From assembly GCA_964448355.1 (NCBI GenBank), contig CAYUWC010000003.1, forward strand, positions 16,983 through 80,982: a stretch of 64,000 nt of DNA. The letters run 5' to 3'. Both the position numbers and the translations under genes were made by a program. The stretch comes from an uncultured Oscillospiraceae bacterium. Lineage in GTDB: Bacteria; Bacillota; Clostridia; Oscillospirales; UBA644. Shown here in pieces: positions 3,208 through 20,508 of the stretch. Below the pieces are notes generated by a model. That model had not been told where the DNA came from. It ran no database searches and was given only the letters and a program-made list of their open reading frames with translations. Positions within the stretch are counted from its first letter, which is position 1; every line of letters starts with the position of its first letter.

Positions 3208-3288
3208 CTCGACGCTTTGAAGAATATAATCGGAATAGTTACGTACAATTATTCCGATTTGAAACATTATTCTTTAAGGCGAGCGAGA

Positions 3289-3822
3289 ATGATAAAAAAG
3301 ACCGTCACGGCAGCTGCGGCTGTTGTTTTTACACTTATTGCGCTGTCGGGCTGTTTTTCTTCCGGCGGCGAATTTTCCGACTGTCGGTTGCCGACAGCCG
3401 ACAGATTTGTTATAGAAGCAACGATAGTCGGGCAGTATGCATTCGATGCCGTAATAACGGAAAGTTATTCGGAATTTACGGGCACGTATCTGACAGAACC
3501 GATCCGTTACTGTGAGGGAGAGCTGACGTGCGACGGGCTTACGGTAAACATAGCCGCAAAAACGGGGGCGCTGTTTTCGCTTTCGGAATTGTTTTCTTCT
3601 CTTTTCGGAGGCGAATATAAAGATATGGACAGTGTTGAAACGTCGGATTCGTACGTGTTTAACACGATTATCGACGGTCAAAACATATCCGTTAAAACAG
3701 ACAAAGAAACGGGACTTCCGACTGTGTTCACCGTCGGAGAATATACAATAACAGTAAAAAATATTGAACTTTACCGGGACACGATAAATGGATCACACAC
3801 GCAGGACATGGGCGACGGTTGA
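3289..3822 (+). CDS. Hypothetical lipoprotein
   Basis: An internal Met gives MIKKTVTAAAAVVFTLIALSGC, a signal peptide plus lipobox. The longer ORF from 3217 has no signal logic. Confidence 0.6.
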   Translation: MIKKTVTAAAAVVFTLIALSGCFSSGGEFSDCRLPTADRFVIEATIVGQYAFDAVITESYSEFTGTYLTEPIRYCEGELTCDGLTVNIAAKTGALFSLSELFSSLFGGEYKDMDSVETSDSYVFNTIIDGQNISVKTDKETGLPTVFTVGEYTITVKNIELYRDTINGSHTQDMGDG

Positions 3823-4900
3823 TATTTCCGCCGCACGAGACAACATAAAAACGATACGAAACATCATCGGCAAGGACTGTGCGCTGATGTCTGTTGTTAA
3901 AGCAGACGCATACGGCCACGGAGCTGTTGAGATATCCAAAGCGATAAACGAGGAATCCGATTTTTTTGCCGTATCGAACATTGACGAAGCTATACAGCTG
4001 CGAAACGGCGGAATAACAAAGCCGATACTCATACTCGGTTACACACCTCCGCACTCGATGGAGCTTATTGCGAAATATAACGTAACGCAAACCGTTTTTT
4101 CTTACGAATACGGCAAAATGCTATCGAGCGCCGCCGAAAAGATCAAGAAAAAGATACGTGTTCACATAAAGATCGACACGGGTATGAACAGGATAGGGTT
4201 CAGCGCTCAGGACGAAGACATTCTTTGTATGTCGCTGCAAAAAATAAAAAAGCTCGCGAACGAAAGATTTCTCGAATTTGAAGGCATATTTACGCATTTT
4301 GCGGTCGCAGACGAACCGGAAGATCCGTTCACGGAAACGCAGTTTAAGCGTTTTATGAATTGCATCGAACTGCTTGAAAAAGACGGCATCAAGTTTAAGT
4401 ACCGTCATGCGGCAAACAGTGCCGCTATCTTGAATTTTCCGAAAATGAAGCTCGACATGGTCCGTCCCGGACTGATACTTTACGGAATAACGACAAATCG
4501 GCCCGACAATATAGGTCTTAAGCCCGTAATGGAATTAAAAACGACCGTCTCGTTTGTTCACGATCTCAAAAAGGGAGACACTGTAAGCTACGGGAGAATA
4601 TTTGTCGCCGACAAAAACATGAAGATCGCAACATTGCCGATAGGCTATGCGGACGGACTTTTCAGAGCGCTCTCCGAAAATATGAGCGTTATTATAAACG
4701 GTCAAAAAGCGCCGATCATCGGGCGGATCTGCATGGACCAATGTATGGCGGACGTTACGGGTCTTGATGTTAAAACAGAAGACGAAGTCATCATTTTCGG
4801 CAACGGCAAGAGCGTTTACGAACTTTCGGACGCTATTGACACGATCCCGTACGAGATAATCTGCGACATAGGCAAAAGAGTACCGCGAGTATATAAATAA
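3788..4900 (+). CDS. alr: Alanine racemase
   Basis: PLP-Lys motif VVKADAYGHGA and the Tyr region DTVSYGR. Length is 370 aa. Confidence 0.92.
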   Translation: MDHTRRTWATVDISAARDNIKTIRNIIGKDCALMSVVKADAYGHGAVEISKAINEESDFFAVSNIDEAIQLRNGGITKPILILGYTPPHSMELIAKYNVTQTVFSYEYGKMLSSAAEKIKKKIRVHIKIDTGMNRIGFSAQDEDILCMSLQKIKKLANERFLEFEGIFTHFAVADEPEDPFTETQFKRFMNCIELLEKDGIKFKYRHAANSAAILNFPKMKLDMVRPGLILYGITTNRPDNIGLKPVMELKTTVSFVHDLKKGDTVSYGRIFVADKNMKIATLPIGYADGLFRALSENMSVIINGQKAPIIGRICMDQCMADVTGLDVKTEDEVIIFGNGKSVYELSDAIDTIPYEIICDIGKRVPRVYK

Positions 4901-4927: not shown

Positions 4928-4973
4928 GGAAGCAAAACAGTGTTTTTCGTAAACAAAAATGCGTCGCTGCATA

Positions 4974-5020
4974 TAAAAAAACGCACATCTTTTCGATAGA
5001 ACATATCGCAAGATGTGCGT
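4974..5020 (-). terminator. Intrinsic terminator of the carAB-dapF-like operon
   Basis: 11-bp stem acgcacatctt/aagatgtgcgt. An A-run on the plus side gives a U-run on the minus-strand transcript. Confidence 0.7.
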
Positions 5021-5035
5021 TTGATTATTTTAAGG

Positions 5036-8000
5036 TCAAATAATTATTTCGCCGTCGAATATTTTGTTTGCGTCGCCCGTCATAAAAATGTTTTCGTCGG
5101 TGTAAGTAACTTTAAGATCGCCGTTAAACAGTTTTACGGTGATCTCCTCGCCCTTACGGCAAAAACCGTTTTCGCAAGCCGCAACGACAGCTGCGCATGC
5201 ACCCGTGCCGAACGAGCCTGTTTGACCGCAGCCGCGCTCCCAAGTACGTATCTTTATCGTTTTTTCATCGATTATCTGAACGAACTCGGCATTGATACGC
5301 TCCGGGAATTTTTCGTAATTTTCAAAGCACGGACCGATCTTTTGAACATCGAGCTTATCGACGTTTTTAACAAAAACTATACAGTGCGGGCCTTCGATAC
5401 CGACGCAGGTAATATTGTAATTTTCGTCGCCGATATTAACAAGGCGATCAACGACCTCTCCGCCGCTGAAATTAACGGGGATCGATGCAGGCGTAAGCGT
5501 AGCCTTGCCCATCTCGACACGTGCCGAAGATACCTCTTTGTTATGAACAAACAACTTGATCTTCTTTATGCCGCACACTGTCTCGACGGTAAGATCTTTT
5601 TTGTCCGTCATATGATTATCGTAAAGATATTTTCCCACGCATCTGACGGCATTGCCGAACATCTTGCTTTCACTGCCGTCTTTTTTGAACATACGTATCT
5701 TAACGTCTGCTTTGTCGGACGGGCATATAAGGACGACACCGTCGCCGCCGACGCCCGTATGTCTGTCGGAATAACGGACGGCAAGGCCTTCGGGGTTGTT
5801 TATTTTTTGATCAAAACAATTGAAATATATATAATCGTTTCCGCAGCCTTCCATTTTCGTAAAGCGAAGCTTCGTTCTTTCGGTACGCATTCTGTTGATA
5901 TCGACAAGCTCTATCGACATTTCGGAGTACTTACTCTTCAAGCTTTGCGCAAGCGCTCTTGCGGTATCGATCGATGTAAGGCACGGAATTGAGCGTTCGA
6001 CGGTCTTTCTTCTTATTTTAACGCTGTCTCTGGACGGAATACGACCTTTGGAAGATGTTGAAATAACATAATTTATCTTTCCGCTTTCAAGGAGCGTGAT
6101 GGTGTTTTCGTCGCTTTCGTGTATTTTATCGACGACGGTCACGGGTGTGCCGCCCTTGCTGATAACGTTTGCCGTTCCGCGTGTGGCATAGATCGAAAAA
6201 CCGAGATCACTGTAGCTCTTTGCGAGATCGGCGACTTCGGATTTATCGCTGTCACGAACGGTGATCATTACGCCTCTCGATCTTTTCATATTGTAGCCTG
6301 CGGCGATAAGACCCTTGTAAAGGCTTTCCTCCATCGTTCCGGCAATACCGAGAACTTCGCCGGTACTCTTCATTTCGGGACCGAGATGGTTATCGACATC
6401 GGCAAGTTTTTCAAACGAGAATACGGGGACTTTGACCGCAACATACGGAGACGAGGGATAAAGCCCCGTGCCGAAGCCCATATCTTTCAGTTTTTCTCCG
6501 AGCATAGCTCTCGTTGCCAGATCTACCATCGGAACGCCCGTAACTTTTGTTATATACGGAACGGTTCTTGACGAACGGGGATTTACCTCGATAACGTAAA
6601 GATCGTTTTCGTAAATAAGATACTGGATATTTATAAGGCCTCTTGTGTTAAGATCCACGGCAAGCTGTTTTGACGCAGACACTATCTTTTCCGTCAGTTC
6701 GTCGGAAACATTCCAAGCCGGGTACACTGCGATAGAGTCGCCGGAATGCACGCCTGTTCGCTCGATATGTTCCATAATACCGGGGATAAGAATATCCTCG
6801 CCGTCGCACACAGCATCGACTTCAAGCTCGATACCCATAAGATATTTATCGATAAGAACGGGATTTTCGATATTGTGCGACAAAATTATACTCATATATT
6901 CGACGATATCGCTCTCGCTAAACGCAATTATCATATTTTGACCGCCCAAAACATACGACGGACGCATCAAAACCGGATAGCCTATTTTTTGTGCGACCGC
7001 AAGTGCTTCTTCGGTCGTCATAACAGTATCGCCGACGGGGCGTTTGATATGATATTTTTCGAGAAGTGCGTCAAAACGTTCTCTGTCCTCGGCGGCATCG
7101 ATACTGTCGGCAGATGTGCCTATGATCTTCACACCCGCCTTATCGAGGAAATTCGTAAGTTTGATCGCTGTTTGTCCGCCGAAAGCGACAACTGCGCCGA
7201 ACGGTTTTTCCGTTTCGATAACGTTCATAACGTCTTCCGGTGTGAGCGGTTCGAAATACAGACGATCGGCAGTGTCAAAGTCGGTAGAAACGGTTTCGGG
7301 ATTGTTGTTTACAATAACGACCTCATAGCCGAGCTTTTTCAGCGATCGGCAGCAGTGTACGGACGCATAGTCGAACTCTATACCCTGACCGATACGAATG
7401 GGACCTGCGCCGAAAACAAGGACCGTCTTTTTATCGGTGGAATGTTCGTTTTTAAAGCGGAGAGCTTCGTTGTCGTCATCGTATGTCGAATAAAAATACG
7501 GCGTTTCGGCGGCAAATTCCGCAGCACACGTATCGACCATTTTAAACACGGCGGAGCGGTGGATATTAAGCTTTGTGCCGGTCAGCTGTTCGATAACGTG
7601 ATCGGGATAGCCGAGTTTTTTTGCTTCGAGATATTTTTCGTCATCGATACCCGACGCAAGTTCGGTTTCAAATTTTACAAGTTTAAGGAATTTGTTAAGG
7701 AACCATTTGTCGATCTTCGTTGCGGCATATACATCGTCAACGGATACGCCTCGCTTAAGCGCCTGATAAACAACAAAGAGACGTTCGTCGTCGCAATTGT
7801 TGAGCCGCTCACGGATCTCGGCGTCGGAAAGTACGGCAAGCTTGGGAGAATTAAGGCTCGACAGCGAGATCTCCGCGCCTCTGACGGCTTTCATTATCGC
7901 CTGTTCAAAACAAGTACCGATAGCCATTACTTCGCCCGTTGCTTTCATTTGCGTGCCGAGAGTACGTTTTGCGTAAACAAATTTGTCGAACGGCCACTTC

Positions 8001-9073
8001 GGTAATTTAACAACGATATAGTCGACCGTCGGCTCAAAACAAGCCGATGTTTTTTTAGTGATGGCGTTGGGTATTTCGTCAAGATTATAACCTACGGCTA
8101 TTTTTGACGCGACCTTTGCTATCGGATAACCCGTTGCTTTCGAAGCAAGTGCGGAAGAACGCGAAACACGGGGGTTGACTTCGATTACGGCGTATTCAAA
8201 GCTGTTGGGATTAAGCGCGAACTGAACGTTACAGCCGCCGTTGACTTTAAGTTCGGAAACGATGCTGAGAGCTGCGGTCTTGAGCATCATAAACTCTTTT
8301 GTCGCCAACGTGACCGCAGGAGCAACAACTATACTGTCTCCGGTATGAACGCCTACGGGGTCTACGTTTTCCATACTGCACACGGTAATAACGTTGCCGG
8401 CACTGTCGCGTATAACCTCAAATTCGATCTCTTTCCAACCGGACACACATTTTTCGACGAGGATCTGGTTTATGGGAGAAAGACGGATACCGTTTGACGC
8501 GATCTCGCGAAGCTGTTCTTCATCCTGTGCGATGCCGCCGCCGGTACCTCCGAGAGTGAATGCGGGGCGGATTATCAAGGGATAGCCTATTTCGCTCGCA
8601 AACTCTATTGCCGATTCGAGATCTGTAACGACTTTCGAAGGGATACAAGGCTGCCCTATTTTGAGCATTGTGTCTTTAAACAGCTGTCTGTCTTCGGCTT
8701 TATCTATAGTTTCGGGGTCCGCACCGAGAAGACGAACGCCCATTTTATCGAGAAAGCCCTCTTTTGCAAGCTGCATAGACAGGGTAAGCCCCGTTTGTCC
8801 GCCCAATGTTGACAACAGCGAATCCGGACGTTCTTTTTCGATTATTCTTTTAATAACAGGTATTGTGAGCGGCTCGATGTATATTCTGTCCGCCATTTCT
8901 TTATCCGTCATTATCGTTGCGGGATTTGAGTTAACAAGAACGACTTCTATACCCTCTTCTCTGAGCGCTCTGCAAGCCTGTGTTCCGGCATAGTCGAATT
9001 CCGCCGCCTGACCTATTACGATAGGTCCCGAACCTATAACGAGCGTCTTTTTTATCGATCTGTCAAGAGGCAT
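5036..9073 (-). CDS. carB: Carbamoyl-phosphate synthase large subunit fused in frame to a C-terminal DapF-like (diaminopimelate epimerase fold) module
   Basis: 1345 aa, against about 1070 for CarB. There are two ATP-grasp halves (GPIVIGQAAEFDYAGTQA and GPIRIGQGIEFDYASVH) and an MGS-like allosteric tail. The ORF then continues without a stop into KLRFTKMEGCGNDY...ERGCGQTGSFGTGACAA. Confidence 0.9.
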   Translation of the reverse strand: MPLDRSIKKTLVIGSGPIVIGQAAEFDYAGTQACRALREEGIEVVLVNSNPATIMTDKEMADRIYIEPLTIPVIKRIIEKERPDSLLSTLGGQTGLTLSMQLAKEGFLDKMGVRLLGADPETIDKAEDRQLFKDTMLKIGQPCIPSKVVTDLESAIEFASEIGYPLIIRPAFTLGGTGGGIAQDEEQLREIASNGIRLSPINQILVEKCVSGWKEIEFEVIRDSAGNVITVCSMENVDPVGVHTGDSIVVAPAVTLATKEFMMLKTAALSIVSELKVNGGCNVQFALNPNSFEYAVIEVNPRVSRSSALASKATGYPIAKVASKIAVGYNLDEIPNAITKKTSACFEPTVDYIVVKLPKWPFDKFVYAKRTLGTQMKATGEVMAIGTCFEQAIMKAVRGAEISLSSLNSPKLAVLSDAEIRERLNNCDDERLFVVYQALKRGVSVDDVYAATKIDKWFLNKFLKLVKFETELASGIDDEKYLEAKKLGYPDHVIEQLTGTKLNIHRSAVFKMVDTCAAEFAAETPYFYSTYDDDNEALRFKNEHSTDKKTVLVFGAGPIRIGQGIEFDYASVHCCRSLKKLGYEVVIVNNNPETVSTDFDTADRLYFEPLTPEDVMNVIETEKPFGAVVAFGGQTAIKLTNFLDKAGVKIIGTSADSIDAAEDRERFDALLEKYHIKRPVGDTVMTTEEALAVAQKIGYPVLMRPSYVLGGQNMIIAFSESDIVEYMSIILSHNIENPVLIDKYLMGIELEVDAVCDGEDILIPGIMEHIERTGVHSGDSIAVYPAWNVSDELTEKIVSASKQLAVDLNTRGLINIQYLIYENDLYVIEVNPRSSRTVPYITKVTGVPMVDLATRAMLGEKLKDMGFGTGLYPSSPYVAVKVPVFSFEKLADVDNHLGPEMKSTGEVLGIAGTMEESLYKGLIAAGYNMKRSRGVMITVRDSDKSEVADLAKSYSDLGFSIYATRGTANVISKGGTPVTVVDKIHESDENTITLLESGKINYVISTSSKGRIPSRDSVKIRRKTVERSIPCLTSIDTARALAQSLKSKYSEMSIELVDINRMRTERTKLRFTKMEGCGNDYIYFNCFDQKINNPEGLAVRYSDRHTGVGGDGVVLICPSDKADVKIRMFKKDGSESKMFGNAVRCVGKYLYDNHMTDKKDLTVETVCGIKKIKLFVHNKEVSSARVEMGKATLTPASIPVNFSGGEVVDRLVNIGDENYNITCVGIEGPHCIVFVKNVDKLDVQKIGPCFENYEKFPERINAEFVQIIDEKTIKIRTWERGCGQTGSFGTGACAAVVAACENGFCRKGEEITVKLFNGDLKVTYTDENIFMTGDANKIFDGEIII
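5039..5872 (-). other. DapF-like module (278 aa) of the CarB fusion; both catalytic Cys positions are Phe
   Basis: Aligns end to end with E. coli DapF (GNDF-like GNDY, NADGSE-like KKDGSE, ERGAGET-like ERGCGQT, GxGACA). Codons 5657-5659 and 5210-5212 read TTC on the coding strand where DapF has Cys73 and Cys217. Confidence 0.8.
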
Positions 9074-10147
9074 TTATCTCACCTTCGCTTTCATCATATT
9101 TTCCGTAAATTGTTTCCAAACAAAGCCCGTGTCGTTCGGGCCCGATATCGTTTCGGCACGGAACTGAACGGAAAAGACCGGCTTGTCCGTAAAGTCGATG
9201 CCTTCGCAGGTATTATCGTTTAAATTTTTGTATGTCATCGTGATATTTTCCGGAAGCTCCGAAGCGTCAACGGCATATCCGTGATTTTGGACCGTGATAT
9301 GCGTTTTCCCGGTTTGAGTGCAAATGATCGGGTGATTTGCACCTCTGTGGCCGTATTTGAGTTTAACGGTTTTACAGCCTGCGGCAAGCGCGATGATCTG
9401 ATGACCGAGACCTATACCGAGCATGGGTTTGCCGCTTTCCAAAAGTTTTTCGATCTGAGCCGTGATCTCCGTATTTTCCGTCGGGTCGCCGGGACCTTCC
9501 GTTAACATAACACCGTCAGGCGCCATTGCAAGGACGTCTTCGGCACTTGTTAGTGCAGGTACGACCGTAACATTGCAGCCGAGTGCATTAAGCTCTTTTA
9601 CCGCATTGCCGACAGCGCCGAGATCGTACACAACGACGGAGCAATTCGCGTTTTCGACGTTAAAATGATAGATCTTTTGGGTCGTTGTCTGCCGAACGGC
9701 GTTTTCGATCTTATAATTTTTCAGTTCTTCAAGGTCGCATTGAGGGGTCTTTGAAATTTTCGCGTTCATTACGCCGTTTTCACGAATGATACGTGTAAGG
9801 GCGCGAGTATCAAGGTCGCATATGCCGATTATCCCCTTATTTAACAAAAAGGTGGAAAGATTACCTTCACATCTGAAATTTGAAGGATCTTCACACCATT
9901 CTCGAACAATATAAGCTTTTAATTTAGGAGAAGAATCTCCGATCTCCTCGGAAATCATTCCGTAATTTCCTATAAGGGGAAAAGTTTGCATTACGATCTG
10001 ACCGAAATTACAAGGGTCGCCGAGAGTTTCGGAATAGCCGACAACACCTGTTGTAAAAACAAGCTCGCCGACAGTTTCTCCGGATGCGCCGAAAGCTCTG
10101 CCCGCAAAGACAGTTCCGTTTTCAAGAATCAAATAAATCCTGTCCAT
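9074..10147 (-). CDS. carA: Carbamoyl-phosphate synthase small subunit homolog with degenerate glutaminase triad
   Basis: Start chosen at MDRIYLILENGTVFAGRAFG, which has GGAGAG as RBS. The CarA N-domain and GATase fold are conserved. The motif reads GIGLGHQ instead of GICLGHQ, and VQFRAE instead of FQGHPE. Confidence 0.88.
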   Translation of the reverse strand: MDRIYLILENGTVFAGRAFGASGETVGELVFTTGVVGYSETLGDPCNFGQIVMQTFPLIGNYGMISEEIGDSSPKLKAYIVREWCEDPSNFRCEGNLSTFLLNKGIIGICDLDTRALTRIIRENGVMNAKISKTPQCDLEELKNYKIENAVRQTTTQKIYHFNVENANCSVVVYDLGAVGNAVKELNALGCNVTVVPALTSAEDVLAMAPDGVMLTEGPGDPTENTEITAQIEKLLESGKPMLGIGLGHQIIALAAGCKTVKLKYGHRGANHPIICTQTGKTHITVQNHGYAVDASELPENITMTYKNLNDNTCEGIDFTDKPVFSVQFRAETISGPNDTGFVWKQFTENMMKAKVR

Positions 10148-10319
10148 ATATAGCTCTCCTAACATATAAAATAATCTTGAACCGCTTTTTCCGATGCAAC
10201 TGCACAATTGCCGCTATTATATAATTGATGCAATTCACATAATTGCGCAGAAAAAAAGGCGCTCACCGGGCGTATGACAGACAGCCACACAACCGACAAA
10301 CGCCCTTGTCTAAATTGAT

Positions 10320-10375: not shown

Positions 10376-10404
10376 TTGATATTTAAACGCTTTTCGGGTA
10401 CAAT
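10376..10404 (+). promoter_or_regulatory. Candidate promoter of the DUF1540 gene (TTGATA-17-TACAAT)
   Basis: Hexamers and 17-nt spacing were read directly from the sequence. Confidence 0.45.
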
Positions 10405-10454
10405 ATCTTTACGGCGAAGTCCGAAACACGAAATACAGAAAGGGAAATGATTTT

Positions 10455-10760
10455 ATGACGGATATATATTGTTCTGTTAGTCAATGCGCGCACAACAAAG
10501 AAAACTGCTGTTGTCTCGAAAATATAAAGGTCGGAGGCGACAATGCGCATTCCACCGAGGGAACACGCTGTGACAGCTTTATACGCGAACATGCCACTAT
10601 GTCTCTCGGCGAAAGCATTTGTCACTGCACGCTCATCGATTGCGAAGCCGAAGATTGTAAGTACAATTGCGAAGGCGAGTGCTGCGCCGAATCGATCGAC
10701 ATCGGCGTAAAAGAGTGCTGCAGCTGCGATGATACGTGCTGTTGTACGTTCAAAAAATAA
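10455..10760 (+). CDS. DUF1540 domain protein (cysteine-rich, two repeats)
   Basis: 101 aa with 19 Cys. The pattern C-x4-C-x-N...CC...I.V...T.C.SF occurs twice, as in DUF1540 proteins of spore formers. Confidence 0.75.
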   Translation: MTDIYCSVSQCAHNKENCCCLENIKVGGDNAHSTEGTRCDSFIREHATMSLGESICHCTLIDCEAEDCKYNCEGECCAESIDIGVKECCSCDDTCCCTFKK

Positions 10761-10780
10761 CGAAACGTCCGTATCCCGAA

Positions 10781-10812
10781 AAAGGCTCACAAGTAAAATT
10801 GTGAGCCTTTTT
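10781..10812 (+). terminator. Intrinsic terminator of the DUF1540 gene
   Basis: 10-bp stem aaaggctcac/gtgagccttt followed by a T-run. Confidence 0.75.
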
Positions 10813-10834
10813 ATGCAAACGGAATGAAGACCTA

Positions 10835-10863
10835 TTGGCATCTCCGACATTCTATGTTAAAAT
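10835..10863 (+). promoter_or_regulatory. Candidate promoter (TTGGCA-17-TAAAAT) in front of a structured RNA
   Basis: Hexamers and 17-nt spacing were read from the sequence. The predicted transcription start falls at the base of the long hairpin. Confidence 0.45.
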
Positions 10864-18644: not shown

Positions 18645-19235
18645 ATGCCGTTTAATTACAATAAATCAGAATTTTTATGCAGTTATTTCGACGCGAAGCA
18701 GCTTTCGCTTGAGCGAAAACCGGAGGTCGTTTTTGTCGGTCGTTCAAACGCGGGAAAAAGCTCCATGATAAACAAGCTTGTAAACCGCAAAAAATTCGCC
18801 TACACAAGTTCCAAGCCCGGCAAAACAGCTGCCATCAACTATTTTTCCGTGGATAACAAAATATATATCGTCGATCTTCCGGGATACGGATTTGCGCAAA
18901 GATCAAAGACCGAGCGAAAAAGCTGGGGCAGCTTGATAGAAACGTATTTTGACCTCGGCAGGGATATGCGGCTTGTTGTACTGTTAATCGATATACGCCA
19001 CGGGCCGACGGCAGACGACGAAATGATGTACGATTATTTGATGTCAAAAACCGTACCTTTCTGCGTTGCCGCAACAAAATCGGACAAGGTCTCGAAAACT
19101 GCGGCGAGCGAAATGGTACAAAAGATAAGCGAGTGCTTCGGTGTTAACGCATTTTCGTTTTCCTCACAGACGGGAGAAGGCGTGGATACGTTAAAAGCCA
19201 TAATCGAAGACTTGACGGAGGAAAAAGATGATTGA
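18645..19235 (+). CDS. engB: Ribosome biogenesis GTP-binding protein YsxC/EngB
   Basis: G1 motif GRSNAGKSS and DLPGYG. Length is 196 aa. Confidence 0.9.
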   Translation: MPFNYNKSEFLCSYFDAKQLSLERKPEVVFVGRSNAGKSSMINKLVNRKKFAYTSSKPGKTAAINYFSVDNKIYIVDLPGYGFAQRSKTERKSWGSLIETYFDLGRDMRLVVLLIDIRHGPTADDEMMYDYLMSKTVPFCVAATKSDKVSKTAASEMVQKISECFGVNAFSFSSQTGEGVDTLKAIIEDLTEEKDD

Positions 19236-20508
19236 AAAACAAGACGGCGTACTTTGTATTGACGGCGTAAAAGTCACGGATATAGTAAACGAATACGGAA
19301 CGCCGTGTTATATAATGTCGGAAAAAACGATAAGGGAAAACTGCCGTAAATACAAAAATGCGATAGAAAATTATTACGGCGGCAACGGACTTCCCGTTTA
19401 CGCGTCAAAAGCGTTTTCCTGCAAAGAGATATACAGGATCGTTGCAAGCGAGGGGTTCGGCGCGGACGTTGTTTCGGGCGGAGAGCTTTACACGGCGCTA
19501 AAAGCAGGCTTTGACCCCCAAAAGCTGTATTTTCACGGTAATGCCAAAACGGTTTTCGAGCTTAAAACAGCGGTCGAAAGCGGCGTTGGGCGCATTGTTG
19601 TGGATAATCTCGAAGAGCTTTTAACATTAGACCGCATTGCTGCAGAGCAAAACAAGGTCGCCGATATCTCGTTCAGAATAAAACCGGGCGTTGAAGCACA
19701 CACGCACGATTTTGTCAAAACAGGACAGATAGACTCCAAATTCGGCGTTGCGCTCGAAAACGGCGAAGCGTTCGAGATCATAAAAACGGTGTCGAAAATG
19801 AAGAATGTTAACGTTGTGGGCGTACACTGCCATATCGGTTCGCAGATATTCGACGAAGATCCGTTTGTGCTTGCCGCAAAGGTAATGCTCAAATTTATTG
19901 CAGAAGTAAAAACAAAGCTTTCACTCGACATACGCGAGTTAAATCTCGGCGGCGGTTTCGGCATAAAATACACGGAAGACCAAGACCCGAAAGATTACGA
20001 CGAATATATGCGCCGTGTTTCGCAGACGGTAAAAAGCGAATGCGAGGCACTCGGCATCGATATTCCGTTTATGGTAGTCGAGCCGGGACGGAGCATTGTG
20101 GGAGCTGCGGGAATAACGGCGTACACCGTTACATCAGTAAAAACGATCGAGCAAATACGGAGCTATGTTGCAATCGACGGCGGTATGACCGACAATCCCA
20201 GATATGCGCTTTACAGATCGGAATACACCGCAGCCATAGCGAACAAGGCTGATCTGCCTCGGGATTTTGAAGCGACGATCGCAGGCAGATGCTGCGAAAG
20301 CGGCGATCTTATCGGGGAAAAGATGTTGATACAGCGTCCCGAAGCGGGAGATATACTTGTTGTGTTCGCAACAGGGGCTTACAACTACTCGATGGCGTCG
20401 AACTACAATCGCGTTCCTCGTCCGCCGGTCGTTATGATAACGGACGGAAAACCGAGACTTGTTGTAAAAAGAGAAACGTACGAAGACATTGTTAAAAACG
20501 ACATATAA
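19228..20508 (+). CDS. lysA: Diaminopimelate decarboxylase
   Basis: Fold-III PLP decarboxylase motifs YASKAF, EPGRSIVG and CESGD. It overlaps the end of engB. Confidence 0.9.
   Translation: MIEKQDGVLCIDGVKVTDIVNEYGTPCYIMSEKTIRENCRKYKNAIENYYGGNGLPVYASKAFSCKEIYRIVASEGFGADVVSGGELYTALKAGFDPQKLYFHGNAKTVFELKTAVESGVGRIVVDNLEELLTLDRIAAEQNKVADISFRIKPGVEAHTHDFVKTGQIDSKFGVALENGEAFEIIKTVSKMKNVNVVGVHCHIGSQIFDEDPFVLAAKVMLKFIAEVKTKLSLDIRELNLGGGFGIKYTEDQDPKDYDEYMRRVSQTVKSECEALGIDIPFMVVEPGRSIVGAAGITAYTVTSVKTIEQIRSYVAIDGGMTDNPRYALYRSEYTAAIANKADLPRDFEATIAGRCCESGDLIGEKMLIQRPEAGDILVVFATGAYNYSMASNYNRVPRPPVVMITDGKPRLVVKRETYEDIVKNDI

Follow-up and report, generated by a model that had tools for sequence, protein, structure and literature searches.

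A CarB-fused DapF-like domain with phenylalanine at both catalytic cysteine positions in an uncultured Oscillospiraceae bacterium

Can the large subunit of carbamoyl-phosphate synthase (CPS) carry at its C-terminus a second enzyme that has lost both of its catalytic residues, and if so, why is that enzyme still there? The question is raised by carB in a 64,000-nt stretch of DNA from an uncultured gut or rumen bacterium of the Oscillospiraceae (Clostridia; assembly GCA_964448355.1, contig CAYUWC010000003.1, positions 16,983 to 80,982 of the forward strand), called the window below, in which the CarB frame runs on into a module resembling the diaminopimelate (DAP) epimerase DapF. A first-pass annotation had reported this stopless read-through into 278 DapF-like codons, placed Phe at both catalytic Cys positions, and suggested that a CarB-DapF fusion is exceptional. 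The first two claims hold and the third does not. Judged from sequence comparison, the fusion itself is not what sets the locus apart; its module stands at the far end of a series of decay that recurs, C/C > F/C > F/F, where each pair of letters gives the state at Cys73/Cys217. Positions follow window numbering, L numbers denote fetched loci or contigs, and P numbers denote protein entries. The fused gene is made up as follows.

5036..9073, minus strand: carB::dapF open reading frame (ORF), a single frame of 1345 aa
5882..9073, minus strand: CarB proper, residues 1 to ~1064, with two ATP-grasp halves, an oligomerization domain and an MGS-like allosteric domain
5873..5881, minus strand: junction, residues 1065-1067 (ERT), from where the alignments to E. 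coli CarB and to the DapF structures end
5039..5872, minus strand: DapF-derived pseudoenzyme module, residues 1068-1345 (278 aa), with the stop codon at 5036-5038

No stop is present between the CarB tail (...SIELVDINRMRTERT) and KLRFTKMEGCGNDY..., and the frame runs on. The first part of the ORF is a complete CarB: NF003671 covers residues 1-1049 of ORF 5036..9073 at 1482 bits (cutoff 599), TIGR01369 scores 1436 bits (cutoff 1027), Pfam CPSase_L_D1/D2/D3 and MGS are all matched, and carA is adjacent at 9074-10207. Residue 1056 pairs with residue 1065 of the 1073 in E. coli CarB, and the canonical CarB end is expected near residue 1064. This leaves only about 3 residues ahead of the start of the first DapF strand, and the two proteins are therefore fused end to end, without a real linker. 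No Shine-Dalgarno-like sequence was found upstream of the internal Met codons 1062 and 1074, and separate translation of the module is therefore not indicated.

The module matches DapF over its whole length. TIGR00652 scores 252.7 bits (cutoff 114.65) and spans 3-277 of the 278 residues, and PF01678 matches twice, once per half. The top PDB sequence match is Bacillus anthracis DapF (2otn, phmmer E = 1.9e-71, 42% identity). An AlphaFold2 (AF2) prediction from a 53-sequence alignment reached a predicted local distance difference test score (pLDDT) of 92.2 and a predicted TM score (pTM) of 0.89; a single-sequence prediction gave pLDDT 44 and was not used. In Foldseek the top-ranked structures are DapFs (TM 0.91 to 2otn_A); DcsC, PhzF and proline-racemase-like proteins come next. 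By both profile and fold, the module belongs to the DapF family. Its active site is altered at the following places, all located by alignment.

5657..5659, minus strand: codon TTC of Phe1139, at the Cys73 position (E. coli/H. influenzae numbering)
5210..5212, minus strand: codon TTC of Phe1288, at the Cys217 position
5684..5686, minus strand: codon AAA of Lys1130, replacing pocket Asn64 (MFNxDGSE > MFKKDGSE)
5384..5398, minus strand: IEGPH, residues 1226-1230, replacing MGNPH, with pocket Asn157>Gly and a new Glu
5222..5224, minus strand: codon CAA of Gln1284, replacing the conserved Glu of ERGxGET (GET > GQT)

In the phmmer alignment with 2otn, GSEGKSCGNG stands opposite GSESKMFGNA, so F1139 occupies the position of the first catalytic Cys, and against solved DapFs F1288 faces the second (GVTQACGTGACA vs GQTGSFGTGACA). 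MAFFT and hmmalign with more than 200 homologs give the same placement of both residues. Both TTC codons lie exactly where the first-pass annotation had put them, its change of MGNPH to IEGPH is confirmed, and N64K and the E>Q change come in addition to those it had listed. Of 78 columns with at least 95% conservation across 51 C/C modules of this clade, 15 are altered (both Cys and 13 others), and the altered conserved columns cluster in three active-site motifs. Lys1130, Glu1227 and Cys1282 are new near the pocket. Retained are N11, G74, N75, H159, N190, E208, R209, G218 and T219, so that within the substrate pocket the departures from DapF are N64>K and N157>G; the roles of these pocket residues we take to be those in the H. 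influenzae DapF-aziDAP and published inhibitor structures. With both Cys and two pocket Asn lost, the module is predicted to be incapable of conventional two-base DAP epimerization, which agrees with the earlier inference.

The read-through and the two Phe codons are real features of this species. In L004 (Logan, SRR10277276), a strain whose orthologue differs from the window at 170/4038 nt (4%) and 10 aa, the 1345-aa read-through, TTC/TTC and IEGPH are all shared, and L085 (SRR10277277) is identical to the window protein over residues 590-1345. The F/F read-through is thus seen in three independent assemblies and two strains, and the junction frame is open in all relatives checked. These independent assemblies were used instead of read mapping, and their agreement shows that neither the open junction nor TTC/TTC is an assembly or base-call error.

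The fusion itself is common. A genome scan with one genome per GTDB species returned the 80 best-matching loci, the window's own species not being among them; its patterns demanded an intact GET or CAAVVAA motif and so under-sampled S/S-type modules. About 64 of the 80 loci (GTDB species representatives, Oscillospirales) are single carB::dapF ORFs of 1335-1512 aa. Cultured carriers include Ruminococcus sp. FC2018 (L006), Yeguia hominis NSJ-40 (L040), Ruminococcaceae bacterium AM07-15 (L021) and Neglectibacter caecimuris (L044), and the fusion also occurs on a complete Christensenellaceae chromosome assembled from a metagenome, in many other metagenome-assembled genomes (MAGs) and on metagenome contigs. 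A junction motif, (S/N)TELVDINxMRxEKxxLxFTKM, is conserved across every fused clade. The window ORF carries its own version (SIELVDINRMRTERTKLRFTKM) and belongs to this family, defined by a single ORF of ~1340-1370 aa with the motif and a C-terminal DapF module. Its closest relative, rumen MAG RUG12846 (L001/L005), is fused as well, with the module 78% and CarB 89% identical. Most fused modules keep both Cys, and database entries for fragments of fused proteins are often named carbamoyl-phosphate synthase large subunit. The fusion is therefore not the exception it was first taken for. Full-text literature searches found no paper on a CarB-DapF fusion or on a Cys-less DapF pseudoenzyme.

Several apparent departures from the single-ORF arrangement were examined and rejected. 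The separate carB and dapF genes of L001 are split by a 15-N scaffold gap across which the frame is continuous. Fused matches of 400-520 aa, which might have represented a shorter MGS+DapF protein, lie on frameshift-ridden long-read contigs or at contig ends. Matches of 279 aa and 61-65% identity look like standalone proteins; P0011, the one inspected, is fused, as one high-scoring segment pair on its contigs (L086-L088) spans CarB residue ~957-992 through the module, and the same is assumed for the remaining ones.

Two further observations concern fused DapFs elsewhere. A full-length G/C fusion, L043 (WQUW01000014.1), comes from a contig placed in a Treponema sp. bin, whereas every other match is clostridial; this placement reflects either mis-binning or horizontal transfer. 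Among representatives at 50% identity there are also other DapF fusions, all of them C/C (P0176, P0216 and P0255, ~690 aa; P0212, 776 aa; P0268, 742 aa), in some of which DapF is C-terminal to an unrelated part of ~400 aa and in one of which it is N-terminal.

Loss of the catalytic Cys has happened repeatedly in fused copies. In the fetched loci these comprise 37 C/C, 21 A/C, 5 G/C, 2 S/C, 2 F/C and 2 F/F modules, the F/F entries being the window and strain L004 and the F/C entries (L001 and L005) two assemblies of one lineage. All 16 standalone DapFs in the same loci are C/C (Fisher p = 3.5e-4 for fused vs standalone, with loci treated as independent of phylogeny). Phylogeny was handled by counting loss events on a tree alone: a rough neighbor-joining (NJ) tree calls for no fewer than 7 separate losses of the first Cys (to A, G, S or F). 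On this tree a large A/C clade is monophyletic, losses to G/C and S/C arose several times independently, and a small clade includes L013 (G/C), L005 (F/C) and the window (F/F). In the scan of species-representative genomes, first-Cys loss is confined to fused copies. Of 150 representatives chosen without bias at 50% identity, 132 are C/C, and most of the exceptions carry a CarB tail. Other fused double losses are S/S in P0037 and P0066, G/S in P0082 and A/Y in P0267.

The order of loss leading to the window can be read from its sisters. The codon at the first Cys is TTC in L004 and in F/C sister L005 and GGC in G/C relative L013; at the second position L005 has TGC, and Cys is also present in L090, L091 and L092. 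A metagenome scan added F/C lineages at 78-82% identity (L090, L091, L092 and L105), which retain Asn64, (M/L)GNPH and GETWAC. Cys73>Phe is thus common to the window species and at least three sister species. Since the F/C lineages have an intact pocket, Cys73>Phe is ancestral, and Cys217>Phe and the remodeling of the pocket came later, in the window species only. Among the relatives surveyed, the F/F pairing, in which Cys217>Phe is added to Cys73>Phe, is restricted to the window species, and the sisters are F/C.

Other states deserve a separate mention. The Cys73>Ala clade comprises 21 species, is monophyletic, and conserves Cys217 and the other pocket residues (members L028, L030, L031, L038, L046, L055, L059-L061, L068, L071-L075, L077, L078, L081, L082 and L084); about half of it also has Asn11>Asp (GTGDDYIF). 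This pattern resembles a stable functional variant more than it does decay. Standalone DapF-like exceptions of 276-296 aa are rare (P0258 and P0260, both C/S; P0271, Y/S).

The module is under strong purifying selection, and has been since both Cys were lost. In the cleaner comparison, between the window and L004, it shows 12 synonymous and 2 nonsynonymous differences (ratio of nonsynonymous to synonymous differences per site, pN/pS, 0.045; Fisher p = 3.5e-7 against neutrality), and CarB shows 146 and 10 (pN/pS 0.021). Against the F/C sister L001, pN is 0.12 and pS 0.74 for the module, with synonymous sites saturated, and 0.07 and 0.66 for CarB. No indels or stops were found within the 278 codons of the module in any of the more than 60 species examined. 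Loss of the essential residues of an enzyme family, together with purifying selection and a kept fold, indicates a maintained pseudoenzyme domain and not a pseudogene tail; "pseudoenzyme domain" had been one of the categories offered at first, and it is the one that these data bear out.

Synonymous divergence within the same pair of strains (window 5036-9073 vs L004:10001-14038) is uneven. Per 100 codons, synonymous differences number 11-28 up to codon 500 (13-28 up to codon 400) and 2-13 beyond it, which suggests a recombination mosaic within carB.

If the module no longer makes meso-DAP, the cell would have to obtain it elsewhere. The gene lysA at 19228-20508 is genuine (TIGR01048, 484 bits), and meso-DAP is therefore needed. 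A search for a canonical dapF covered the 64-kb window and found no second copy there; of what the first-pass annotation had pointed to, lysA is thus confirmed and a partner dapF was not recovered in this part of the genome. Neither ddh nor dapL was found among the ~30 largest window ORFs annotated, and a Ddh probe (an approximate C. glutamicum sequence) had no match in the window or the fetched loci, a weak negative. We infer that meso-DAP for LysA, and probably for the cell wall too, is made by an enzyme encoded outside the window, perhaps a standalone dapF product or Ddh. Gut genomes commonly carry the Ddh variant of the pathway, which does without DapF (PMC9026213), and growth of E. coli is normal in a dapF null (10.1101/2024.10.14.618325); DapF catalysis is therefore dispensable in principle.

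In some relatives a fused DapF-like module and a canonical standalone dapF co-reside within a few kb, namely in Neglectibacter caecimuris (L044) and in the Acutalibacter-type MAGs L053 and L065. The pairs of DapF-like copy and dapF lie at L044:3335-4183 and 5968-6840, L053:6079-6939 and 6967-7791, and L065:5308-6156 and 6858-7688. A further Acutalibacter-type MAG, L080, has such a pair (64-918 and 6094-6924) with CarB not within the fetched stretch. The DapF-like copies of all four have HGxGND changed to (S/T)(A/T)C(R/S/C)ND. The fused copy of L065 has lost both Cys and has a carB frameshift near 4411-4420, and it may be a pseudogene. In one relative (L089:3363-10470), a true standalone dapF lies among glutamine-amidotransferase genes (carA-like, guaA-like, pyrG) followed by a class I/II aminotransferase gene; the association of dapF with carbamoyl-phosphate and nucleotide genes thus does not depend on fusion.

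Why, then, is the module kept? We consider the chance slightly better than even that it is a retained non-catalytic part of CPS, held in place by a dependence ratchet after the epimerase was lost. That judgment is made jointly with a second one, that the fusion is best explained as old, of single origin and spread widely through Oscillospirales (genomes of Ruminococcaceae, Oscillospiraceae and Acutalibacteraceae type). An ancestral carB-dapF fusion would have given a bifunctional protein, and the C/C fused modules of today probably are working DAP epimerases in such proteins. The folding, stability or quaternary structure of CarB would then have grown dependent on the tethered DapF fold. Once another source of meso-DAP had made the epimerase redundant, the catalytic residues would have decayed in a domain that could not itself be lost. 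In the window lineage, Cys73>Phe would have come first, followed by Cys217>Phe with N64K, MGN>IEG and E>Q.

The role of the retained module is most likely structural or one of assembly, exerted through a DapF-type dimer contact or through packing on the allosteric domain, and the module may influence allostery as well. It is predicted no longer to epimerize DAP, and canonical DAP binding has probably been lost too. The new Lys and Glu would sit where the distal carboxylate and amine of DAP would lie; together with two Phe at the center, they make continued DAP binding less plausible and favor a module that would be purely structural and perhaps permanently closed.

Several points weigh against this explanation. 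The structural or assembly role is drawn from selection and tight tethering, which are indirect evidence. The AF2 evidence is confined to the fold of the module and its confidence. The module contributes only 14 substitutions to the selection test between F/F strains, and an alternative source of meso-DAP was not found within the 64 kb. Lastly, in the F/C sisters and the large A/C clade all the rest of the pocket is kept, which would be easier to understand if the property under selection in those lineages were ligand binding and not scaffolding alone.

The last point leads to the alternative that survives best, which we regard as possible but tentative: the Cys-less module would be a ligand-sensing domain, binding a small molecule without turnover and signaling to the allosteric domain. 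LL- or meso-DAP, lysine, ornithine, citrulline or another diamino or ureido acid are candidates, and CPS output would thereby be tied to the status of cell-wall, lysine or arginine precursors. The linker-free joining to the MGS-like allosteric domain and the strong purifying selection fit such a role. Ornithine is a classical CPS effector, and one DapF homologue, DcsC (7vdy), acts on a ureido amino acid. The A/C clade and the F/C sisters make a better case for sensing, since there the pocket apart from the first Cys has been conserved over long divergence, which would befit a binder without turnover. In the window, however, bulky Phe stands twice at the catalytic center, and the pocket is remodeled by N64K, N157G and E>Q; canonical DAP binding there is unlikely, and any ligand would have to differ.

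A broader alternative seems to us improbable. Under it, the CarB-fused DapF of Oscillospirales would be an undescribed regulatory or assembly domain of CPS, the fusion having been fixed because the DapF fold, by dimerization or by binding diamino acids, controls CPS. The F/F module would be a permanently closed, self-liganded form that locks CPS in one regulatory state, its substrate site filled by Phe-Phe packing and a K1130-E1227 pair. This would explain why fused copies lose the catalytic Cys over and over and yet the fold, usually together with the pocket, remains under selection.

Quite unlikely is the idea of a neutral relic, that is, a functionless module not yet deleted and kept since truncations would harm carB expression. 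Progressive decay of the active site (C/C > F/C > F/F plus the pocket changes) is what a relic might be expected to leave, and L065 offers a fused copy that is more decayed and frameshifted, beside a standalone dapF. A functionless tail of 834 bp would, however, gather nonsynonymous changes and indels, whereas the module combines a confidently predicted fold with low pN/pS both between F/F strains and toward the sister, and its frame is free of indels and stops throughout the species compared.

We hold a repurposed catalyst, in which the module would run another reaction (e.g., isomerization or elimination) with different residues, in the manner of one-Cys members of the proline-racemase and DapF superfamily, to be very doubtful, although it too had been among the first options. 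Altered acid/base pairs do occur in the superfamily (PhzF, 3-hydroxyproline dehydratase, methylitaconate isomerase), members of which are among the Foldseek neighbors; the module is under purifying selection, and Lys1130, Glu1227 and Cys1282 are new residues near the pocket. Yet Phe, which is chemically inert, stands at both acid/base positions; the changes are confined to one species with F/C or G/C sisters, which fits stepwise loss better than a conserved new active site; and the Cys-less lineages share no conserved replacement residue.

An artifact, whether an error that removed a stop or turned TGC into TTC or a chimeric carB-dapF contig, is effectively excluded by the three agreeing assemblies, one of them from a strain with 170 nt differences, and by a junction conserved in more than 60 species; no evidence for it was found, while assembly-made splits do exist in some relatives (the N-gap in L001, frameshifts in L002 and L003).

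The features flanking the fused gene are these.

9074..10207, minus strand: carA, CPS small glutaminase subunit, listed as 377 aa from TTG
4972..5022, minus strand: intrinsic terminator hairpin with U-run, directly after the carB::dapF stop
3788-4900, convergent to carB::dapF: alr-family gene, TIGR00492 412 bits (cutoff 168)

The stop of carA abuts the start of carB. The true start of carA is likely the ATG at 10147, giving a protein of 357 aa; the orthologue is called as 357 aa, with CPSase_sm_chain and GATase, in both L001 and L004. The terminator was found by RNA folding (dG -24.7 kcal/mol, z -7.1, 0/200 shuffles equally stable), its long-loop hairpin having been missed by a simple terminator scan, and it is predicted to end the carAB transcription unit, facing the convergent alr gene. 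That neighbor was considered as a candidate for DapF2 and rejected; it is a canonical Alr by TIGR00492, its top PDB match is Alr1 (4y2w), no dap or lys genes are grouped with it, and the same alr neighbor is present in relatives.

The sister has bioY (L001:10911-11459) in the interval from the fused gene to alr; in its place the window has an unannotated 201-aa ORF (3217-3822, plus strand) that overlaps the alr start in part. Synteny with L001 is otherwise conserved (carA-carB::dapF-alr-carbohydrate kinase-DUF6106-IreB). Upstream of carA, at 10455-10760 on the plus strand, a 101-aa ORF is extremely cysteine-rich (MTDIYCSVSQCAHNKENCCC...CCSCDDTCCCTFKK) and overlaps an antisense ORF at 10383-10850.

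As a pseudoenzyme domain the module is of a known kind, and its fusion is ordinary in the clade; the repeated loss of Cys under purifying selection is apparently unreported. If our reading is true, annotation pipelines will credit the window genome and ~30 other species with A/C, G/C, S/C or F/C modules with a DapF, at a profile score far above cutoff, and reconstructions of lysine and peptidoglycan synthesis for gut and rumen Oscillospirales may err where the sole "DapF" is a Cys-less CarB appendage. The series from intact bifunctional through half-dead to dead, all under purifying selection, would be a natural model for the origin of pseudoenzyme domains and useful for learning what the DapF fold does for CPS. 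An extra, so far undescribed domain tightly tethered to the CarB allosteric domain could also alter the regulation or assembly of CPS in a large and abundant gut clade.

Compared with known systems, the module shares its two-domain fold and length with canonical DapF (EC 5.1.1.7; 2otn, 1bwz, 4ijz) and differs in being F/F, in N64K, N157G and E>Q, and in its attachment to CarB, and epimerization is not expected of it. The C/C carB::dapF fusions (L006, L040, L021) have the same ORF of ~1345-1360 aa, junction motif and carA-carB context, with modules 54-61% identical; they keep the whole pocket, whereas the window has the most degenerate member seen. Members of the same fold superfamily with altered bases (3-hydroxyproline dehydratase, 6r76 and 4k7g; PhzF, 1u1w; O-ureidoserine racemase DcsC, 7vdy) are 13-27% identical to the module and have competent replacements (Thr, Glu, Asp, Cys) in contrast to its inert Phe/Phe. 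DapF2, a DAP epimerase of the PLP-dependent alanine-racemase family, is a non-orthologous replacement of DapF (PMC9026213; 10.1101/2024.10.14.618325). It could make classical DapF dispensable, but the alr neighbor in the window scores as a canonical Alr instead.

That a DapF fold can serve a non-catalytic regulatory role is known from E. coli, where DapF activates RppH non-catalytically by protein binding (PMC4227774, PMC6061791; PDB 6d13, 6vck). E. coli DapF is active and free-standing and its partner is an RNA pyrophosphohydrolase, whereas the window module is predicted to be dead and is CarB-attached; 6d13 is among the Foldseek matches of the module. Inactive dihydroorotase-like parts occur in pyrimidine enzymes, as in the pseudo-DHOase domain of yeast Ura2 and in PyrC', which is needed for assembly of the Pseudomonas aspartate transcarbamoylase (ATCase). 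There the fold and the partner domain are different and the origin lies in pyrimidine rather than lysine and cell-wall synthesis, and CarB-DapF is known from sequence. By analogy with these systems, the window module would be a dead metabolic enzyme kept as a structural part of a carbamoyl-phosphate-related complex, its catalysis having been lost after the association was formed.

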